Positions 7,040-49,088 of a stretch of DNA of 64,000 bases are shown here, one piece after another (position 1 is the first letter of the stretch; every line of letters starts with the position of its first letter). The stretch covers positions 215,750 to 279,749 of IMG/VR virus record IMGVR_UViG_3300028591_005215, one strand, 5' to 3'. The stretch is from a virus. Its lineage: Duplodnaviria > Caudoviricetes. Under the pieces are notes generated by a model, which was not told the DNA's origin, did not search any database, and saw nothing but the letters and a program-made list of their open reading frames with translations. The translations under genes and the position numbers were made by a program.

Positions 7040-10000
7040 TAAGATATTTTTACCTATAAATAATAGCAAAAAATCCAATAATTCATCTTTTTATTTGGAT
7101 GTAGATTTATTATCCAATAAAAAGATGTTTACTGACAATAATATTGTTGGAACGATAAATGCATATGATAGGTATAGGTATGAGAGAAAACAAAGTAATA
7201 AAGTAAGACTTACTGTTAATATTAACGCTATATGCAGTAATGTTTTATTTAACCCTGTTACTGAAATAATTAGGTATGAGGGTTCTGACAGTGCAACATC
7301 TATTAACTACGAAACTATTAAAAATGGGAACATAAAGGATAAAGACGGTAGTAACCCTATAAAACCTAAAGATGGTGATGATAAATCATTTGAATGGAAT
7401 TCATATCAAGCAGTGCGTGATACTCAACTATCAAATGGAGATTATGGGTTTACTTATCATTGCGGTACTGATATTTTTAATAATCATTTATTCAGGAACA
7501 ATTCTTTTAACCTTGTATTATATAACGATGATAAAAAGTCTAATATAGATGAAACATTTAATACAATAGATGATTGGATGCGTAACGAAAAAGGTGAAAT
7601 TATTAAAAGGGGTTTTATTGCTGAAGAAGATGGTAATATTATATATTCTATAACAGGACTTTATATACAAGCAGAACCGCACCTTAAAAATGGGGTTGTT
7701 GATTATCATGATATGTACTGCACGTTTAATATTAATATTTTTGCATCAAAAAATATAAAAAATTCTCCAGAGAATACATTATTTGGCAAATTTTTTATTA
7801 GTGATGATGGAAAAAATGAAAAATACGAAGTAGAATATCATTATACTGGTTTTGAATTAAAAGAAAATAAAGAAACAACTTTATTAATACAAGATGTATA
7901 TGTAGGCTCTACAACAAGATGGGATAAGTTAAATTTCGGAATGGATGACAATTATTCTGACTATGCTTTGTCAGTTAATTCCAGAATTGAAAATATGTAT
8001 AACAACAAATATCCAGTGTCTTATTATTTAAAAGATTCGTCAGCATATAAGAAATTTTACAAGCAATCACATCTTTATCAAAAAAACGGCTTTAATAGTT
8101 TTGATAACTCATTAAAAAATAACTTATTAGAAGTCAACGGGTGGTTTGGTTTTAAAAATAAAGGAAAAATTCAATTAAAAAATTGCACTGTATTAAATAG
8201 CAGTAAAAAATTACCTATATATAATGTTATTAATAACAAATTGAATGGCGAATTTATTGATATGTATCCAGAACGTGATTTATTTTCATTCACACCGAAA
8301 TATAATGAATATAGGAATAGAATAGAGCCTAATTGGGACTATTGCTTGACATATCCTAGTTCGTCTACAACTGAAGGTATTAGTTTTATTAATAGTGAAA
8401 TTAATAGCCTTAAAATAGAAGTATTTAATGAAAATATTAAAGATGATAATGGTGTTGATGTAATAACTTTTTATTCTGTTTCACAGCATGGTTTAAGTGA
8501 AGGCGACTATGTAAACATTTATTCAGATAATGAATTGATTATATCAAATGCCACAGTTTCATTAGTATATAGTAAATATATATTTCAGATATACAGAAAT
8601 GGAGTGACAATTTCGAATAAATGGTATGAACTGAAAGATGAAGATACTAAAGGAAATACATTAGTTGTTGATGGCATAACATATTTTAAGAACCAATCTC
8701 TAAACAATGTTAGATATGTAGAAACATATGAATCCAAGAACTATGTATATTGTGCCGTTCCTGATACTAATAAAATTTCATTGGACAGAACTACTACTAA
8801 CATTTCTTTCAAAAAAGTTGTAAATGGTATTGAATGCAATTATTATGTAAGAATTTTTTCAAAAATACCTAATTTTAAGTTTTCTGACATCGAAATAAAT
8901 GATAAAACACTGTATGATAATGATAGTACATTAATAGCTGATTATTCTAATAGTGATAATATGTTCGAAAGTCACATAAATAAATTAGGATTTTCAAAGA
9001 ATATATATGGTGATAGCATAAATGAAATCGTTTTTACTGATGATATAGATTTGTCATATTTAAAAGATAATCTTGGTAGACCATTAAGTGATATTTATTT
9101 GTCAATATTTAAGCGTAATAAAGGATATAAAAAATGGTATGGAATAGATGACTATGGCAATCCTACAGAATGTAATACAAAAGATAGCGAAATTGAATAT
9201 TCACACTGCTTCGGTAAAAATAGCTGTGGTTTTATTTTATCAGATGAGTCATCGGATGATACAAGATATGAAGATGTACGTTCAATATGCACTACAGGTA
9301 AAGAAGGTGTTATAATGGGTGTGATAAACAAAGATGCAACTAAAAGATATGGTGCTGATGAAATAATCTTTGATGCTGATAAAAATTTCTATGGAGATTT
9401 ATGCTATTATTCACCTACTGATGCTAATGAGGTGTGTATACAGCCTATATTCAATAGATTTAATACAGCGCAACGTGAATTAACAAAAAGCAATAGTATT
9501 GCTTACAAATCATTTAGTTCATTTACATATGATGAAATAATAAATGATGAAGGTCACACAAGAGAACCGTCATCAACATACCATAAAAATCATTCAGAAC
9601 AGAGGATTTATAACCCACTTACAAGGGATGAAGGCTATTACTATAAAGCGCATTATAAAATACCTGTTAAGACTATTTCAGCAGATTTAAGCAAAGAAAA
9701 AGCTATAACACATACAATTTTATCTTTAGAATATCAAGATGATGAATTAATAATATATACTGACGATGTTAATTATTTTTCCATTAATGATAAATTTACT
9801 ATATACGATAAAATTGATAATGTATTGTATAATGGCATAGTTTCAAAATTAATTACTGATAAAAAATTTTTGTGCTATATTTTAGATGAAAATAATATTG
9901 ATGTCAAATTACCTTATATAAATGATATATCAAGATATATATTATTAACACGTGATGATACAACCCCATCATATGCAAAAATAATTAAAGATGGCTCTTG

Positions 10001-27177: not shown

Positions 27178-27513
27178 ATGAATATAATAATAGAAAGAGT
27201 TATTTCGCAAACCATTAATAAGCTCATCAACGAAAACTGTTCAAGGTCATCAGTCATAACAGAGAACGATGGTGATGATATGGGTATCTACAAAGAACTT
27301 GATGATAAGGTTATTGATATTTGTTATCGTCATGATTTCAATGTACAAACAAGAGTTGGCAACGATTTGGCATATTATGCATTTTTCATTGCAGATGACA
27401 GACTACCAAAAGTTCAAGAATCAATACAAATGTTGGAGAAACTTGGACTAAGAAGAATCAATAATGGGACTTTAAGCGGAACAATACATTATTACACTAT
27501 AGATTTTCACTAA
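27178..27513 (+). CDS. Hypothetical protein with N-terminal L/IxE leader
   Basis: IIIERVISQTINKLINE; ATATTTAT motif upstream at 27151. Confidence 0.6.
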   Translation: MNIIIERVISQTINKLINENCSRSSVITENDGDDMGIYKELDDKVIDICYRHDFNVQTRVGNDLAYYAFFIADDRLPKVQESIQMLEKLGLRRINNGTLSGTIHYYTIDFH

Positions 27514-27518
27514 ATAAC

Positions 27519-28851
27519 GTTCCAAGGATGCCCACACGCTTTAGCGGTGGGAGGAATTGGAACAAATTTTTATTTTTTTTTTTCTTATTTATTTAAACTT
27601 TTAAAACTTTCTTTATATTTATAATAAGAAGGGTATTTCCCTTGAGTGAATAAAAACACATGACGTACAGAACATATAACATAGAGCTACAAATGAGTGA
27701 CACAACACACAACTATTGGATGAGCCTATTGACTCAGACAATGGAAGCTTATAACTGTTGTGGCAACATCGCTGTACAACAGCAAATACCACTAGGTATT
27801 AAGCCCTTCCATGATAATTTGTATGGTATAATCAGAAAGAAGTTCCCACTGATTCCAGCACAAGGTGCAATAAAAACTTATAAGGAAGTCCTTTCAACAC
27901 TCAGAGCAATCAGAGGTAACAAACATAAGAACGCCTCAGTTCCTCAACGTAAACAACTGTCATTACATCTTGATAAAAGAATGTATTCAAGACTTTCCAT
28001 TGATGGTATATCCTTGACAACTGAAGTAAGAAACAAACGTGAGTTCTGTACATTTATCCTCTTCGACAAGGTGAGAGAATTATTCTCCACTTGTGTCCCA
28101 AAAGACCCTACAATCTTTGCTCGTAACGGTAGACTATTCCTTTCAGTATCTTTCGAGGTTCAATCCTTGCCTTGCAAGGATGACACCGCAATCGGTGTTG
28201 ACCTTGGAATGAAGAGATTCTTTGTCACCTCAGAAGGTAAGTCCTTCGTTGACAAGAATTACTTGAAACAACGTAGGAAACTACGTTATTTGAAGCGTTG
28301 TCTCCAGAGCAAATGTTCTCATTCATCCAAAAGGCATCTTCAACGTTTATCCCATAAGGAACGTAATGTTTCCAAGAGCCAAGTTGAAAAAGCTTGCAAT
28401 GTGCTACTTCGTAGCACCAATACAAGTATTCTTGTATTGGAAGACCTTACGAAGATTAAGACGAAGACTTCCAAGACAAAGGAAGGTTTTAAGAGGACAA
28501 GACATAACAATGCCTTGTCTCAAGTCCCATTCTATATGTTCAAAGAACGCTTGACCAATAAGGCACAACTCGTTGGAAAACGAGTTGAAACAGTTTCTCC
28601 AGCGTTTACAAGTCAGACTGACAGCCGAACAAACAAACGTAATGGCATCCGCCACGGATGCAATTATATATGTTTTGATGGTGTTGTCCTTGATGCTGAT
28701 TGGAACGCTGCGGTCAATATTGCACTTCGTGCAAAACACCCACTTTCGAGCAGCGAGCTGCCCTTAAGTGGCAGGGTGCGGTCAATCACCCAATCGTCAG
28801 AAGCCTAACGGCTTTATGGCAAGCCACTGACTTTAGGCAGTGGTAGTTGAC
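27519..28851 (+). mobile_element. IS200/IS605-family element, tnpB only (IS1341-like)
   Basis: Left-end hairpin gttccaa..cccac..tttag..gtggg..ttggaac (27519-27563); right-end hairpin ccactg..tttag..cagtgg followed by tagttgac; GC content above the flanks. Confidence 0.8.
27660..28808 (+). CDS. tnpB: TnpB-family RNA-guided nuclease
   Basis: RuvC-I GVDLG, RuvC-II LVLEDL, TSQ, RuvC-III DADWNAAVNI. Confidence 0.9.
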   Translation: MTYRTYNIELQMSDTTHNYWMSLLTQTMEAYNCCGNIAVQQQIPLGIKPFHDNLYGIIRKKFPLIPAQGAIKTYKEVLSTLRAIRGNKHKNASVPQRKQLSLHLDKRMYSRLSIDGISLTTEVRNKREFCTFILFDKVRELFSTCVPKDPTIFARNGRLFLSVSFEVQSLPCKDDTAIGVDLGMKRFFVTSEGKSFVDKNYLKQRRKLRYLKRCLQSKCSHSSKRHLQRLSHKERNVSKSQVEKACNVLLRSTNTSILVLEDLTKIKTKTSKTKEGFKRTRHNNALSQVPFYMFKERLTNKAQLVGKRVETVSPAFTSQTDSRTNKRNGIRHGCNYICFDGVVLDADWNAAVNIALRAKHPLSSSELPLSGRVRSITQSSEA

Positions 28852-28880
28852 TAAATAACGAATTAAATACGTATTGAAAT

Positions 28881-44429: not shown

Positions 44430-45626
44430 ATGAAAGTGATTTTAAAGACATATAAGTACAGAATGTACCCAAATAAGGAGCAACAACAAATGCTTGCAAA
44501 ATATTTTGGGTCAGTCCGTTTTGTCTATAATCACTTCCTTGCTGAAAGAAAACAGCAATACACAGAGAGTGGTAAAAGTGATAACTACTATGCACAAGCA
44601 AGCACACTTACCAAGCTAAAAAAACAAGAAGATTATTCGTGGCTGAAGGAAATTAATTCACAAACACTTCAATTTGTACTTAGAAATCTTGAAACAGCAT
44701 ACACAAACTTCTTTAGGGGTAATGCAAGATTTCCAAGATTCAAGGCAAAGAAGAATGGTGGCAGTTTCCATATACCACAGCATTGTTCTGTTGAAAATGG
44801 TAGAATCTACATACCAAAGTTTAAGGGTGGCATAAAGATAGTAGAACACAGACCATTTAAAGGTGGTGATGTTAGAAATATGACAATCTCTGTCACACCA
44901 AGTGGAAAATATTATGTTTCCATACTAACGCAAGTTACATATGAACCTTTACAGAAAACCAATGCAAAGGTTGGTATAGACTTGGGGCTAAAAGACTTGG
45001 TTATTACAAGTGATGGCAAAAAGTATTCAAGCAATAAGTTTATCAAACGTTACTCAAAAGAACTTGCAAAAGCACAAAAGCATTTGTCAAAGAAGCAGAA
45101 GGGTAGTAATACTTGGGATAGACAAAGAATAAAGGTTGCAAGAATACAAGAGAAGATTCATAACTGTAGGTTTGACAAATTGCATAAGATTAGTACTGAC
45201 TTAATCAGAAACTATGATGTAATTTGTTGTGAGGATTTAAACGTTAAAGGCATGCAAAGAAATCATAGACTTGCTCAGACAATATCTGATGCAAGTTGGG
45301 GAGTATTTCTTTCAATGCTTACATATAAAGCAGTTATGAACAATAAGCAAGTAGTGAAGATAGACAGATTCTATCCATCTTCAAAGACTTGTCATTGCTG
45401 TGGATGGGTAAAAGAAGACTTGCTATTGAAGGATAGAGAATGGGCTTGCCCTCATTGTGGAAACACACTTGACAGAGATATTAATGCTGCGATAAATATC
45501 CTTGCAGAAGGATTAAGAAATATATCGGCAGGAACTGTCGATTACACTGATGGAGCAGATGTAAGACCCTTTCAAGGGCAATCAGCAATGAAGTCAGAAG
45601 CCCACAAATCTTTAGTTTGTGGGTAG
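44430..45626 (+). CDS. tnpB: TnpB RNA-guided nuclease
   Basis: YKYRMYP HTH, GIDLG, CEDL, SSKTCHCCG..CPHCG zinc finger, DRDINAAINI. Confidence 0.95.
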   Translation: MKVILKTYKYRMYPNKEQQQMLAKYFGSVRFVYNHFLAERKQQYTESGKSDNYYAQASTLTKLKKQEDYSWLKEINSQTLQFVLRNLETAYTNFFRGNARFPRFKAKKNGGSFHIPQHCSVENGRIYIPKFKGGIKIVEHRPFKGGDVRNMTISVTPSGKYYVSILTQVTYEPLQKTNAKVGIDLGLKDLVITSDGKKYSSNKFIKRYSKELAKAQKHLSKKQKGSNTWDRQRIKVARIQEKIHNCRFDKLHKISTDLIRNYDVICCEDLNVKGMQRNHRLAQTISDASWGVFLSMLTYKAVMNNKQVVKIDRFYPSSKTCHCCGWVKEDLLLKDREWACPHCGNTLDRDINAAINILAEGLRNISAGTVDYTDGADVRPFQGQSAMKSEAHKSLVCG

Positions 45627-47420: not shown

Positions 47421-47428
47421 TATATTTG
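47421..47428 (+). promoter_or_regulatory. Bacteroidota -7 box (TATATTTG) upstream of the tRNA-like RNA
   Basis: TAnnTTTG with TTTG about 20 nt upstream; RNA starts 12 nt downstream. Confidence 0.6.
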
Positions 47429-47439
47429 CTTTAAATTTT

Positions 47440-47669
47440 GGGAAAGTGGCGGAATTGGTAGACGCTGGGGACATTGTATGGCTCGATTTTAGTGAATAAT
47501 GAAAAAATATATTTTATTCGCAGAGCCCTTTATTATCCACTGCTTTAGGTAAGTCCATCCTTTGGTGTGAGAAATCATGTAATGGCATCCACTTTGTAAT
47601 ATCGTTTAATATAAACGAATTATGATGATAAGGACGTAAATCGTGTAGGTTCGAATCCTACCTTTCTCA
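47440..47669 (+). ncRNA. tRNA-like RNA (~230 nt): acceptor, D and T arms around a large insert
   Basis: GGGAAAG/CUUUCUC acceptor, UGGCGGAAUUGGUAGACGC D arm, GUAGG-UUCGAAU-CCUAC T arm; no recognisable anticodon arm. Confidence 0.75.
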
Positions 47670-47734
47670 ACTATTTAATAAGAAATGTATATAAAATATT
47701 TGGTTTTATTATAATATTTATATATATTTGTAAC

Positions 47735-47855
47735 GTAATCACTACAATATACGAAAAAAGGTTAACAGTAGTCCTTTTGAGTCAGTAACCTTGAGATAAT
47801 ATCAAAATCAACGGCATGACGTAGATGAGCTGTAGCAAAAGGTTGTAGTGACTGC
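47735..47855 (+). ncRNA. Putative structured ncRNA (~120 nt)
   Basis: gtaatcactacaa/ttgtagtgactgc and ccttttg/caaaagg stems; starts just after TATATTTG (47723-47730). Confidence 0.5.
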
Positions 47856-47900
47856 ATTATTTTATACCTCGATGGTGAAATTGGTAAACACACGAGACCT

Positions 47901-48733
47901 AATTTAATTTGAGTGCTATGGCGAGAAATCCCATAGTAGAATCTCCCTAAAACGGTGGAAATCCTTTTTATGTTAGTTATATCACTCCGAGAGTGCTCGT
48001 ATAGGATGGGGAAAATGATATATGTCCAATAAGACCCTGATACGCATCTGCGTAGAGCGCTGTCTTGAATTAACAAGCAACAGATAGGACAAACTAACAA
48101 CACTAACCAATAATGCGTAAGGATAATACAGTGCTAAATTGAGAAGCTTGCATTAACTCTTTTGAAAGGTGAAATTAGATGGGAGTTAAAATCTGCTCAG
48201 CTTTTAATAACAAAAATGTGTCTCATAAAAACGCTTTTAGTGAAAAACAAATAGGCAGCAGTACTACCGAATTCACGCTTGTGGACTATCCAACTATGAA
48301 TGACAGACTTAGAAATAAGGAACTAAAAAGTAGCGATAGGTTGAAACAAGAAGTTAATAATGAACAGACAAATTTGTTCAAGTTTTAACATACTGTAGAG
48401 AGTATATAGGAGATGCCTAAGTTGAAATTATGTGCAAATAAAAGTGGGCTTGGAAGTAGCCATCTTTTAAAGAGTTAATCACTCTGGGAAGGAAGTAACC
48501 TTCAGGGAGGTAGGTATGCATCCCTCTGGCCGATGCATTTGGAGTTAAAAGCCAAAATGTTTGGGCAGCAGAACGTCAGTGGATTATTTGGTGTAACAAC
48601 ACATATTTGTACATTACTTGCAAGAATTTCAATATGGTAATAATGTATTCCAGACTACAACAAGCAAGTCGATAATTAAAGAGTGGGAAGCAAAGACGCT
48701 CCTTGTTTGGCTATGGTAACATAGTGTAGCAGG
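47901..48733 (+). ncRNA. Group I intron (trnL-UAA/IC3-like), 833 nt, with large peripheral inserts
   Basis: U^AA insertion site, P2 with GAAA loop, P3 aucucc/ggagau, P7 gagagua (48398-48404)/uauucc (48646-48651), P8, P9 GUAA hairpin, terminal AGG (omega G). Confidence 0.85.
48430..48614 (+). ncRNA. 23S rRNA H43/H44 (L11-binding) mimic in intron loop P8
   Basis: GUGGGCUUGGAAGUAGCCAUCUUUUAAAGAGU..GUGUAACAAC enclosed by an 11-bp stem. Confidence 0.75.
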
Positions 48734-48804
48734 AAAATTTCGTGAATCGTAAGATTCTTGAGGGTTCGAGTCCCTCTCGAGGTACTATAATGACTTTACC
48801 TAAA

Positions 48805-48875
48805 TGTGGTATGATGTAACGGTAACATAGCAGATTCTGATTCTGCATTTATAGGTTCGAATCCTATTACCACAA
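48805..48875 (+). tRNA. tRNA-Gln(CUG)
   Basis: UGUGGUA/UACCACA acceptor, GCAGA-UUCUGAU-UCUGC anticodon arm, AUAGG-UUCGAAU-CCUAU T arm; CCA not encoded. Confidence 0.9.
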
Positions 48876-48902
48876 CAATTTAAGCGAAGCAAAAAAATAT
48901 TA

Positions 48903-49088
48903 ATGGACGCATTTATATATTTAACTGATGAAGAAAAATTAAAGCATCTTTGGTCTAAATCGCCTTTTGATAATTATACAAGCTATACATATATTAGTGA
49001 AGATGCAATTAAAGATGTTTTAACTGAAGATGAATTCAATGATTTGAAACTTAAAATACGGTTAAATTCTACCGACAAAAAAATATAA
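48903..49088 (+). CDS. Small hypothetical protein
   Basis: 61-aa ORF with ATG after an A-rich leader. Confidence 0.5.
   Translation: MDAFIYLTDEEKLKHLWSKSPFDNYTSYTYISEDAIKDVLTEDEFNDLKLKIRLNSTDKKI

Follow-up and report, generated by a model that had tools for sequence, protein, structure and literature searches.

A phage RNA family resembling the GTPase-associated centre of 23S ribosomal RNA, with one member inside a split tRNA-Leu gene

What is a near copy of a ribosomal RNA (rRNA) domain doing inside a transfer RNA (tRNA) gene of a phage? The question is raised by a 64,000-nucleotide (nt) stretch of DNA, here called the window, that covers positions 215,750 to 279,749 of the IMG/VR virus record IMGVR_UViG_3300028591_005215 (Caudoviricetes). 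An original prediction, made from the letters of the window, had described a mimic of the uL11-binding domain of 23S rRNA carried in loop P8 of a self-splicing tRNA intron, and all the sequence elements that it listed for the mimic were found at 48430-48614 (window coordinates, plus strand, as for all window features below). This 185-nt RNA rebuilds the GTPase-associated centre of 23S rRNA, comprising the top of helix H42 together with H43 and H44. It is present once in the 280-kb phage record and is an intact, typical member of a widespread family of phage-encoded RNAs.

The RNA is bounded by the strands of an 11-bp closing helix, AUGUGCAAAUA (48430-48440) and UAUUUGUACAU (48604-48614), which includes one G.U pair and corresponds to the top of H42 (1045-1055 and 1104-1114 in E. 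coli numbering). Next to the 5′ strand lies AAAGUGGGCUUGGAAGUAGCCAUCUUUUAAAGAGU (48441-48475), an H43-like hairpin plus junction equivalent to E. coli 1056-1090, which is aligned both by the large-subunit (LSU) rRNA model of Rfam and by a covariance model of the family, R1 (see below). This near-exact H43 block contains the UUUAAAGAGU junction and has G1067 at 48452 and U1072 at 48457. The 5′ strand of H44 is then interrupted, between 1090 and 1091, by a multi-hairpin insert of 111 nt (48476-48586), the base of which is formed by UAAUCACU (48476-48483) and AGUGGAUUA (48578-48586) in an 8-bp helix with one bulged G. A UUUG linker (48587-48590) leads into the 3′ block GUGUAACAACAC (48591-48602, equivalent to 1091-1102), where U1092, A1095 and A1099 occupy 48592, 48595 and 48599. 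The H44-like hairpin reads GGUGUAACAACAC, and linker and hairpin taken together (48587-48603, the hairpin GGUGUAACAACACA being 1091-1103) are identical to the U-type 3′ block of the family. The domain folded below shuffled controls (z -2.6). In the ribosome the fold is held by contacts of C1072/C1092 with C1072-G1099, of G1071/G1091 with G1071-C1100, and between A1070 and A1096 (PMC2952862); G1071, U1072, G1091, U1092, A1096, A1099 and C1100 are all present in the window copy and pairwise compatible with that contact list.

The same architecture was found in several hundred or more IMG/VR phage contigs. The pattern GGCTTRGAAGYAGCCAYNNTTTAAAGA matched at least 118 IMG/VR contigs; among the matches listed, a single locus (L106) ran on as real 23S rRNA, all the others continuing with GAGU and variable sequence. 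A search of phage genomes with such a pattern, outside rRNA operons, had been proposed as a check in the original prediction; the E. coli reference string quoted there was matched by the genuine, enterobacterial-type 23S context of L106. In short copies lying between tRNA genes the family plan reads: 5′ closing strand, GGANGUN-GGCUURGAAGYAGCCAYCN-UUUAAAGAGU, variable insert, UUUGG(C/U)GUAAYA(G/A)CACAC, 3′ closing strand. Window positions 48441-48475 fit the H43 and junction motif, their A1056 being common to 23 of 79 copies, and agree with the consensus of those 79 and of 111 further copies. In every member examined the insert sits at exactly 1090/1091 and is closed by a covarying 3-bp base; its length ranges from 42 to 355 nt across the family and its sequence is not conserved between members. 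The usual setting is a stand-alone gene, often between tRNA genes, with many copies beginning 14-25 nt after one tRNA gene and ending about 90-170 nt before the next. The window copy departs from this setting in lying inside a split tRNA gene.

Copies were also present, with no gene annotated, in cultured phages: Cronobacter GAP32, Pectobacterium CBB, Serratia BF, several Erwinia phages, Yersinia fHe-Yen9-04, Xanthomonas XacN1, XbC2 and XaC1, Pseudomonas pf16, Astolliot and Milchi, Aeromonas 4_4572, Ralstonia RSP15, Acinetobacter ME3, and a Vibrio and a Paenibacillus phage. The copy of GAP32, at about 289511-289761 of JN882285.1, stands between two hypothetical genes with no tRNA nearby, and its only Rfam match was to LSU model positions 1096-1145 (E 7.8e-5). 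The model R1 was built from 24 family members, the window copy being excluded. Run on the 64-kb window, it gave exactly one strong match, at 48430-48613 (90.5 bits, E 1.6e-27); its best matches in 39 other loci scored 38-113 bits, which places the window copy in mid-range. Its likeness to the family is well beyond chance.

How closely does this RNA follow genuine 23S rRNA? In a 226-nt search, the Rfam bacterial LSU model aligned 48442-48484 with its own positions 1098-1143 (16.2 bits, E 0.0032), taking the local hairpin GAGU-UAAUC-ACUC for H44; judged from the family comparison, the true H44 equivalent is the distal block. The same model gave no match in a search of the whole 280-kb record, and no rRNA sequence beyond H43/H44 was found there. 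The 5′ block shows about 86% identity to E. coli 23S 1059-1090 and comes nearer still to a Bacteroidaceae 23S (L143), which reads GGCUUGGAAGCAGCCAUUCAUUUAAAGAGUGCGUAACAGCUCAC. G1067, C1097 and GAGU are common to the window copy and this Bacteroidaceae sequence, so that what the original prediction had given for Bacteroidota 23S at 1067 and 1097 holds; at the triple, L143 has C1072/C1092/G1099 where the phage RNA has U/U/A. The 18-mer that combines G1067 with U1072 occurred 20 times in representative genomes of 185,579 species, in no case in a 23S context: three occurrences were mimic-type copies on contigs of metagenome-assembled genomes and the rest lay in unrelated, apparently coding sequence. 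The UUUG linker and A1101, which are not rRNA features, are common to hundreds of phage copies. The agreement at G1067, C1097 and GAGU fits a mimic tuned to a Bacteroidota host. Two other observations were counted for such a host: the best phage match of a TnpB-like open reading frame (ORF) at 44430-45626 is in a Parabacteroides phage, and a TnpB remnant near the mimic matches Prevotella Lak phages.

Whether the resemblance is maintained by selection was assessed in an alignment of the 24 members used for R1. In this set 96.2% of pair cells were paired, compared with 72% after shuffling and 34-61% with slid partners, and the covariation score was 0.658 against 0.174, none of 500 shuffles reaching as high. 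All eight tested pairs of the closing helix and all three pairs of the insert-base helix changed on both sides. Pairs 1-3 of the insert base were paired in 94-97% of copies, with 4-6 pair types. Position 1058:1080 was G-C, U-A or A-U in the 24 members and took all four Watson-Crick types over 79 copies, while 1092:1099 was C-G in 18 members and U-A in 6; taking 1072 as the partner of 1099 gave identical counts. In the set of 79 distinct copies, 1072/1092/1099 was C.C-G in 53, U.U-A in 18, U.U.G in 6 and C.U-A in 2.

The 79-copy set had been gathered with a 5′ pattern, and two reciprocal searches were seeded by the 3′ block alone. The seed GGCGUAAYAGCAC, which carries C1092-G1099, recovered 59 new distinct copies, all with C1072 (59/59). 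The seed GGUGUAAYAACAC, with U1092-A1099, recovered 52, all with U1072 (52/52), position 1072 being kept out of the scoring. The identity of 1072 thus matched the 1092-1099 pair in 111 of 111 independently seeded homologues. Position 1082:1086 also covaried in the reciprocal sets; G1071 was kept in 59/59 and 51/52 copies and U1060 in 59/59 of the C-type set, neither forced by the search, and U1094 was invariant in all 79 copies of the first set though not fixed by the search. The original prediction had read the joint change of 1072, 1092 and 1099 as selection on the tertiary fold, and the reciprocal searches together with the covarying helices bear this out. The conserved part of the RNA is the rRNA-like one and the variable parts are the insert and the closing helix; the selected property is therefore the fold and surface of the GTPase-associated centre.

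The family appears to be undescribed, as had been proposed. Rfam 15, applied at gathering and E-value thresholds to the window, 12 family loci and the GAP32 copy, returned tRNAs, one unrelated GOLLD RNA and weak LSU matches, with no family for the mimic. A full-text literature search that included the motif yielded no description of this RNA family, most subscription journals lying outside its coverage. A blastn comparison of the entire RNA region with 50,697 phage records matched only the tail of a TnpB gene, in Lak phages, and exact 22- to 27-mers from insert and exon found no relatives in IMG/VR. Some members vary the plan. Five loci (L307, L318, L324, L354 and L371) have the 3′ strand of H43 broken after AGCCA by extra sequence, which looks like a second tolerated insertion point. 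A 409-kb phage contig (L316, 3766-4945) gave three R1 matches within 1.2 kb (41.6, 25.7 and 24.6 bits), which may be tandem diverged copies. At another locus (L051) a GOLLD RNA (1359-1772; Rfam, 236.7 bits) lies in the same array of 25 tRNA genes as a mimic copy (7168-7330).

What might such an RNA do? In the ribosome this domain is bound by the C-terminal domain of uL11. We postulate that each family member is a replica of the GTPase-associated centre, set in the window copy at the tip of a P8 extension, that acts off the ribosome as a decoy, probably via uL11; to this reading we assign a probability of roughly 0.55. The closing helix replaces H42, with H43, the UUUAAAGAGU junction and H44 kept nearly letter for letter, tertiary-contact nucleotides included, and a variable structured insert is tolerated at the one fixed point, 1090/1091. 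The RNA would fold like the 58-nt rRNA domain and, in its most likely mode, bind host uL11 through the C-terminal domain of that protein while displaying the 1067 and 1095 loops, thereby withdrawing uL11, or a factor recognising the surface formed by uL11 and RNA, from normal use. The window copy would be transcribed with the tRNA-Leu and then either released with the intron RNA or kept on it. Loss of uL11 from ribosomes, weaker activation of RelA, or protection from something aimed at the rRNA site are conjectured consequences.

Several observations weigh against this proposal. In the C-type set (n = 59) the exposed H43 loop varied, position 1067 being A in 45 copies, G in 10, C in 3 and U in 1, position 1068 G in 39 and A in 20, and position 1070 A in 45 and G in 14; this variation, looser than in rRNA, weakens a strict factor-docking role. 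No uL11 gene was found in the phage record, so that any partner must come from the host. The parts of rRNA that bind uL10 (lower H42) are absent from the mimic, and a full mimic of the stalk base is thereby excluded. In the window copy, finally, the local minimum-free-energy fold favoured a small hairpin, AGAGU-UAAUC-ACUCU, over the family-type insert helix.

The housing of the window copy raises a question of its own. A type-II tRNA gene at 47866-48785, with acceptor strands ACCUCGA/UCGAGGU, a Leu-type D arm, a variable arm and a T arm, is split by an insert of 833 nt, and ARAGORN called one tRNA over this interval only when introns were allowed. In this intron mode the 5′ exon (47866-47900) resembles tRNA-Leu(UAA) and comprises ACCUCGA, the D arm, the anticodon stem strand CGAGA and the loop start CCU; the 3′ exon (48734-48785) comprises AAAA, the anticodon stem strand UUUCG, the variable arm, the T arm, the acceptor strand and the discriminator A. 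The insert, a putative trnL-type group I(-like) intron, occupies 47901-48733, between anticodon positions 34 and 35. It begins with A after CGAGACCU and ends with G48733 before AAAAUUUCG, so that the exon ends in U and the insert in G. Joining the exons yields a 7-nt anticodon loop, CCUAAAA, in which position 33 is C; phage tRNA-Leu genes that share the D arm and have no insert read CGAGA-CUUAAAA-UCU, with U33. Comparison of the joined loop with these homologues places the insert between U34 and A35, the classical group I site of trnL(UAA). A tRNA-Gln(CUG) gene (48805-48876; Rfam, 64.7 bits, and ARAGORN) follows directly downstream, and it was the only element that standard Rfam and ARAGORN runs detected in the window.

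Is the insert an intron? It was compared with 21 cyanobacterial trnL(UAA) introns, with which the guide, P2, P3, a J6/7-like segment, a GNRA hairpin and the terminal G are collinear. The internal guide UUUGAG (47908-47913) stands where those introns have AAUUUGAG; its GAG can pair with exon CCU to form P1, with a U.G pair at the splice site and, owing to C33, a C.A mismatch beside it, and its U-rich part can pair with AAAAU of the 3′ exon (P10). Minimum-free-energy folds contained a hairpin placed as trnL P2 (GCUAUGG/CCAUAGU, 47915-47937, with a GAAA-containing loop). The P3 5′ strand CUCCC (47943-47947), followed by a J3/4-like UAAAA (to 47952) where trnL has GCUCUC-AAA, pairs with GGGAG at 48181-48185 and closes the minimum-free-energy fold of 47901-48190 (duplex -8.9 kcal/mol). 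The stretch 48164-48185 consists of GAAAGGUG (J6/7-like), AAUUAGAU (candidate P7 5′ strand) and GGGAG (P3 3′ strand); the order GAAAGGUG-AAAUUAGAU-GGGAG resembles the trnL consensus GGAAGGUG-CAGAGACUCGAC-GGGAG. The candidate P7 3′ strand, GUCGAUAAUU (48668-48677), would form 8 bp with 48173-48180, with a G-C pair and a 2-nt bulge. Beyond it, a 3′ terminal region like that of trnL P9 (48681-48733) holds a hairpin GAGUG...CGCUC (48681-48701), a second hairpin CUAUG-GUAA-CAUAG with a GNRA loop (48711-48724) and the terminal G. On the best reading, the stretch from GGGAG (48185) to the candidate P7 3′ strand (48668) would be P8. A long irregular stem within it, 48394-48429 pairing with 48625-48658 (-18.2 kcal/mol; the folds extend its 3′ strand over 48615-48658), carries the mimic at its tip.

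Other observations tell against an intron. Rfam model RF00028 gave no match in the insert, either with E values up to 10 over 47700-48950 or in a search of the whole record; an nhmmer profile of the 21 trnL introns found nothing significant, its best match (E 2.8) falling on GAAAGGUG; no canonical P4-P6 could be drawn from the insert folds; and the candidate P7 is weak (-1.1 kcal/mol), as is P1 by its mismatch. The original prediction of a self-splicing tRNA intron with the mimic in P8 was therefore sustained in part: the P8 placement fits the candidate strands of P3, J6/7 and P7, and recognition by RF00028 or by the trnL profile failed. An alternative core with P7 formed by GCGCUGU (48057-48063) and ACAGUGC (48128-48134), plus a J8/7-like AAGGAUAAU, was discarded, as it would call for a P3 overlapping the guide; CCAGACUAC (48650-48658) as the 5′ strand of P7 was rejected because this segment is the 3′ strand of the long cargo stem. 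The mimic was enclosed by a split tRNA in the window only, in none of 135 other loci holding both mimic blocks. ARAGORN intron-mode calls on tRNA arrays were chimeric and were discarded, and a stricter version gave no second split-tRNA host in the 135 loci. A neighbouring gene encodes a protein of 232 amino acids; it had no relatives in IMG/VR and hence offered no syntenic comparison for the intron.

A compact, canonical-looking group I intron does lie nearby. RF00028 gave 27 bits to an intron in an nrdD-like gene (L147 1501-1678; positions 213937-214114 of the phage record, G000), 1.6 kb upstream of the window, which contains GACUA...AAGAUAUAGUC; nrdD of phage T4 is likewise interrupted by a group I intron. 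Upstream of the split gene, and neighbouring it, is a second unusual RNA (47440-47669), which is 230 nt long and tRNA-shaped, with acceptor strands GGGAAAG/CUUUCUC, a Leu-type D arm, a canonical T arm and a multi-hairpin insert of about 150-180 nt that replaces the anticodon arm. The octamer TATATTTG lies upstream of this RNA at 47421-47428 and is found again at 47723-47730, some 135 nt ahead of the split tRNA-Leu gene. Phage-like contigs L234 and L262 (also L213 and L256) carry tRNA bodies with the D arm of the window tRNA-Leu, in which the anticodon arm has given way to a foreign insert of 60-110 nt; they point to a broader class of RNAs scaffolded on tRNA.

The insert also holds foreign sequence of another kind. 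A 147-nt segment (48250-48396) is 83% identical in DNA to sequences of Prevotella phages Lak-A1, A2 and C1 and represents the 3′ end of a TnpB gene, or an omega-RNA-like segment, with no TnpB gene attached. A 69-residue ORF (48179-48388) aligned with the last 45 residues of the Lak-A1 protein (E 3e-17), whose gene carries the TnpB domains Cas12f1-like TNB, OrfB_IS605 and HTH_OrfB_IS605 (Pfam). In IS200/IS605 insertion sequences (IS) the 3′ stretch of the TnpB gene encodes the omega-RNA scaffold and right end. The homology ends at 48396, where the long stem starts, and we read the remnant as a decayed IS insertion between P3 and P8, and not as an IStron. A second partial copy of the TnpB tail lies at 131925-131982 of the phage record (G000). 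The remnant sequence was not found in the other TnpB elements of the window (27502-28871 and 44430-45626), the latter of which has a 398-residue ORF matching phage 'transposase' (TnpB-type) genes in 457 phage records, with 59% identity to the best, from the Parabacteroides phage mentioned above. The Lak-A1 TnpB ORF (L002 1377-2639) stays open only with one in-frame TAG taken as a sense codon, as would fit recoding of the TAG stop codon; such recoding has been reported for Lak phages.

Other accounts of the mimic have to be set beside the decoy proposal. If the segment were a decayed fragment of host 23S rDNA, or a chance resemblance, the identity of its 5′ block with 23S rRNA, closest to the Bacteroidaceae sequence, would be accounted for. 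It has no flanking rRNA, however, and the LSU model matches this segment only; the closing helix and insert are family features with compensatory changes, the G1067/U1072 18-mer never stands in a 23S context, and UUUG and A1101 recur in hundreds of phage copies. This account, which the original prediction had also set aside and which the 111/111 agreement at the triple further contradicts, can be virtually dismissed. A purely structural module without any ribosome-related partner, whether a nuclease-resistant cap, a folding nucleus for the insert or a peripheral element of P8, would suit the fixed insertion site, the tolerance of 42-355 nt and the position of the domain at the tip of an intron stem; yet the inserts share no conserved sequence while the rRNA-like part is nearly invariant, and a scaffold need not keep unpaired rRNA loops or track the host-type G1067 and C1097. 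We consider it quite improbable. The RNA might also be a bait for a partner other than uL11, such as a translational GTPase, RelA, a defence effector or toxin hitting the rRNA site, or thiopeptide antibiotics, which bind the cleft between uL11 and RNA. Conservation covers the exposed 1067 and 1095 loops as well as the buried contacts, with U1094 unchanged in 79/79 copies, and the family is found in phages of widely differing hosts, which a universal target would lead one to expect. On the other side, the sarcin-ricin loop, which GTPases also need, is absent, and loop positions 1067, 1068 and 1070 vary; we know of no anti-phage effector specific to the GTPase-associated centre. A partner of this sort seems unlikely, though less so than a mere scaffold.

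The context of the window copy admits a further account, independent of what the mimic binds: the 833-nt insert would be no working intron, and the tRNA-Leu body would serve as a scaffold for processing and stabilising a composite RNA (by RNase P and 3′-end maturation) or would be a disrupted relic. The neighbouring RNA at 47440-47669, tRNA-shaped with its anticodon arm replaced, and the similar bodies in L234 and L262 would find a place here. So would C33, which stands in place of the near-universal U33 and weakens P1, the failure of group I models on the insert, the weak candidate P7 and the IS remnant. What this account leaves to coincidence is that the insert falls exactly at the trnL group I site, with U at the exon end and G at the insert end, that its excision would restore a 7-nt loop, and that guide, P2, P3, J6/7-like motif and a 3′-proximal GNRA hairpin follow one another as they do in trnL introns. 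We regard it as a minority possibility to be taken seriously.

Returning to the decoy, its fullest form would have the replica strip or capture host uL11, or a factor that reads the same surface, and so reprogramme translation control, for instance by damping the RelA-dependent synthesis of (p)ppGpp or by drawing onto itself an attack directed at the rRNA site; housed in P8 of a tRNA-Leu group I intron, it would let one transcript yield both tRNA and decoy. All these parts taken together make a tentative and rather doubtful proposal. Should the RNA bind uL11 or another ligand of the GTPase centre, no earlier example would be known of a virus that copies a functional rRNA domain as an RNA of its own to act on the host translation apparatus. 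The phenomenon would be very common, each family search having reached at least about 118 contigs and copies being present in cultured jumbo phages that infect Cronobacter, Pectobacterium, Serratia, Erwinia, Yersinia, Xanthomonas, Pseudomonas, Ralstonia, Acinetobacter, Aeromonas and Vibrio, and the family could be tested directly with existing phages and purified uL11. With its hundreds of independent sequences, a point at which insertion is tolerated and a clean covariation among three positions, the family also lets the fold of a classic RNA-protein model system be studied as a natural experiment. The window copy adds a new housing for such an RNA, in a split tRNA gene, and bears on phage tRNA loci as production sites for other RNAs.

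Among known systems, GOLLD and ROOL are likewise phage-borne, tRNA-associated structured RNAs of unknown function; their folds are unrelated to that of the mimic, they copy no rRNA domain, and neither Rfam model matches it. For the insert, the closest relatives would be the trnL(UAA) introns of cyanobacteria and plastids, which we take to belong to group I subgroup IC3. The site between U34 and A35, the guide AAUUUGAG, P2, the CUCCC/GGGAG pairing of P3, a GAAGGUG-type J6/7, the GNRA hairpin and the terminal G all find matches in the insert. Unlike those introns, which measure 231-368 nt, the insert is 833 nt long, carries about 480 nt of P8 cargo and resides in a phage; its P4-P6 is unrecognisable and its candidate P7 is A/U-rich and weak, RF00028 and the trnL profile both missing it. 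IStrons, reportedly characterised by Zedaveinyte et al. (Science 2024) as a group I intron joined to a TnpB-bearing IS605/IS607 element, similarly combine a group I-like intron and TnpB omega-RNA-type sequence in one insert. The present insert differs from them in having no tnpB or tnpA and in placing the omega-like remnant mid-insert, 337 nt from the 3′ end, and not at the 3′ splice site.

For the mimic itself, a functional parallel is offered by the leaders of ribosomal-protein operons, such as the L10 leader and the L1 site in the L11 operon mRNA, in which an off-ribosome RNA imitates an rRNA protein site and can titrate the protein. These leaders are cis-regulatory parts of cellular mRNAs with a loose likeness to rRNA; none of the Rfam leader families matched the mimic, which is a separate phage RNA and a near-exact copy, with no regulated gene. 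The nearest structural relative is the GTPase-associated centre itself (E. coli 1051-1108), the 58-nt domain that binds uL11 and thiostrepton. The three-way junction layout is common to both, their sequences hardly differ in H43, in the 1082-1086 turn and in the H44 hairpin, and the contact positions 1071/1091-1100, 1072/1092-1099 and 1070/1096 (PMC2952862) are kept in the phage RNA. Both show G.A or A.A at 1056.1103, and both show the switch of the triple from C.C-G to U.U-A, which Conn, Gutell and Draper (1998) are said to have noted in natural rRNAs. Unlike its rRNA counterpart, the phage RNA lacks the uL10-binding part and has A in place of U at 1101; it is free-standing, phage-encoded and without rRNA context, with H42 swapped for an arbitrary helix and an insert of 42-355 nt plus a UUUG linker set between 1090 and 1091.

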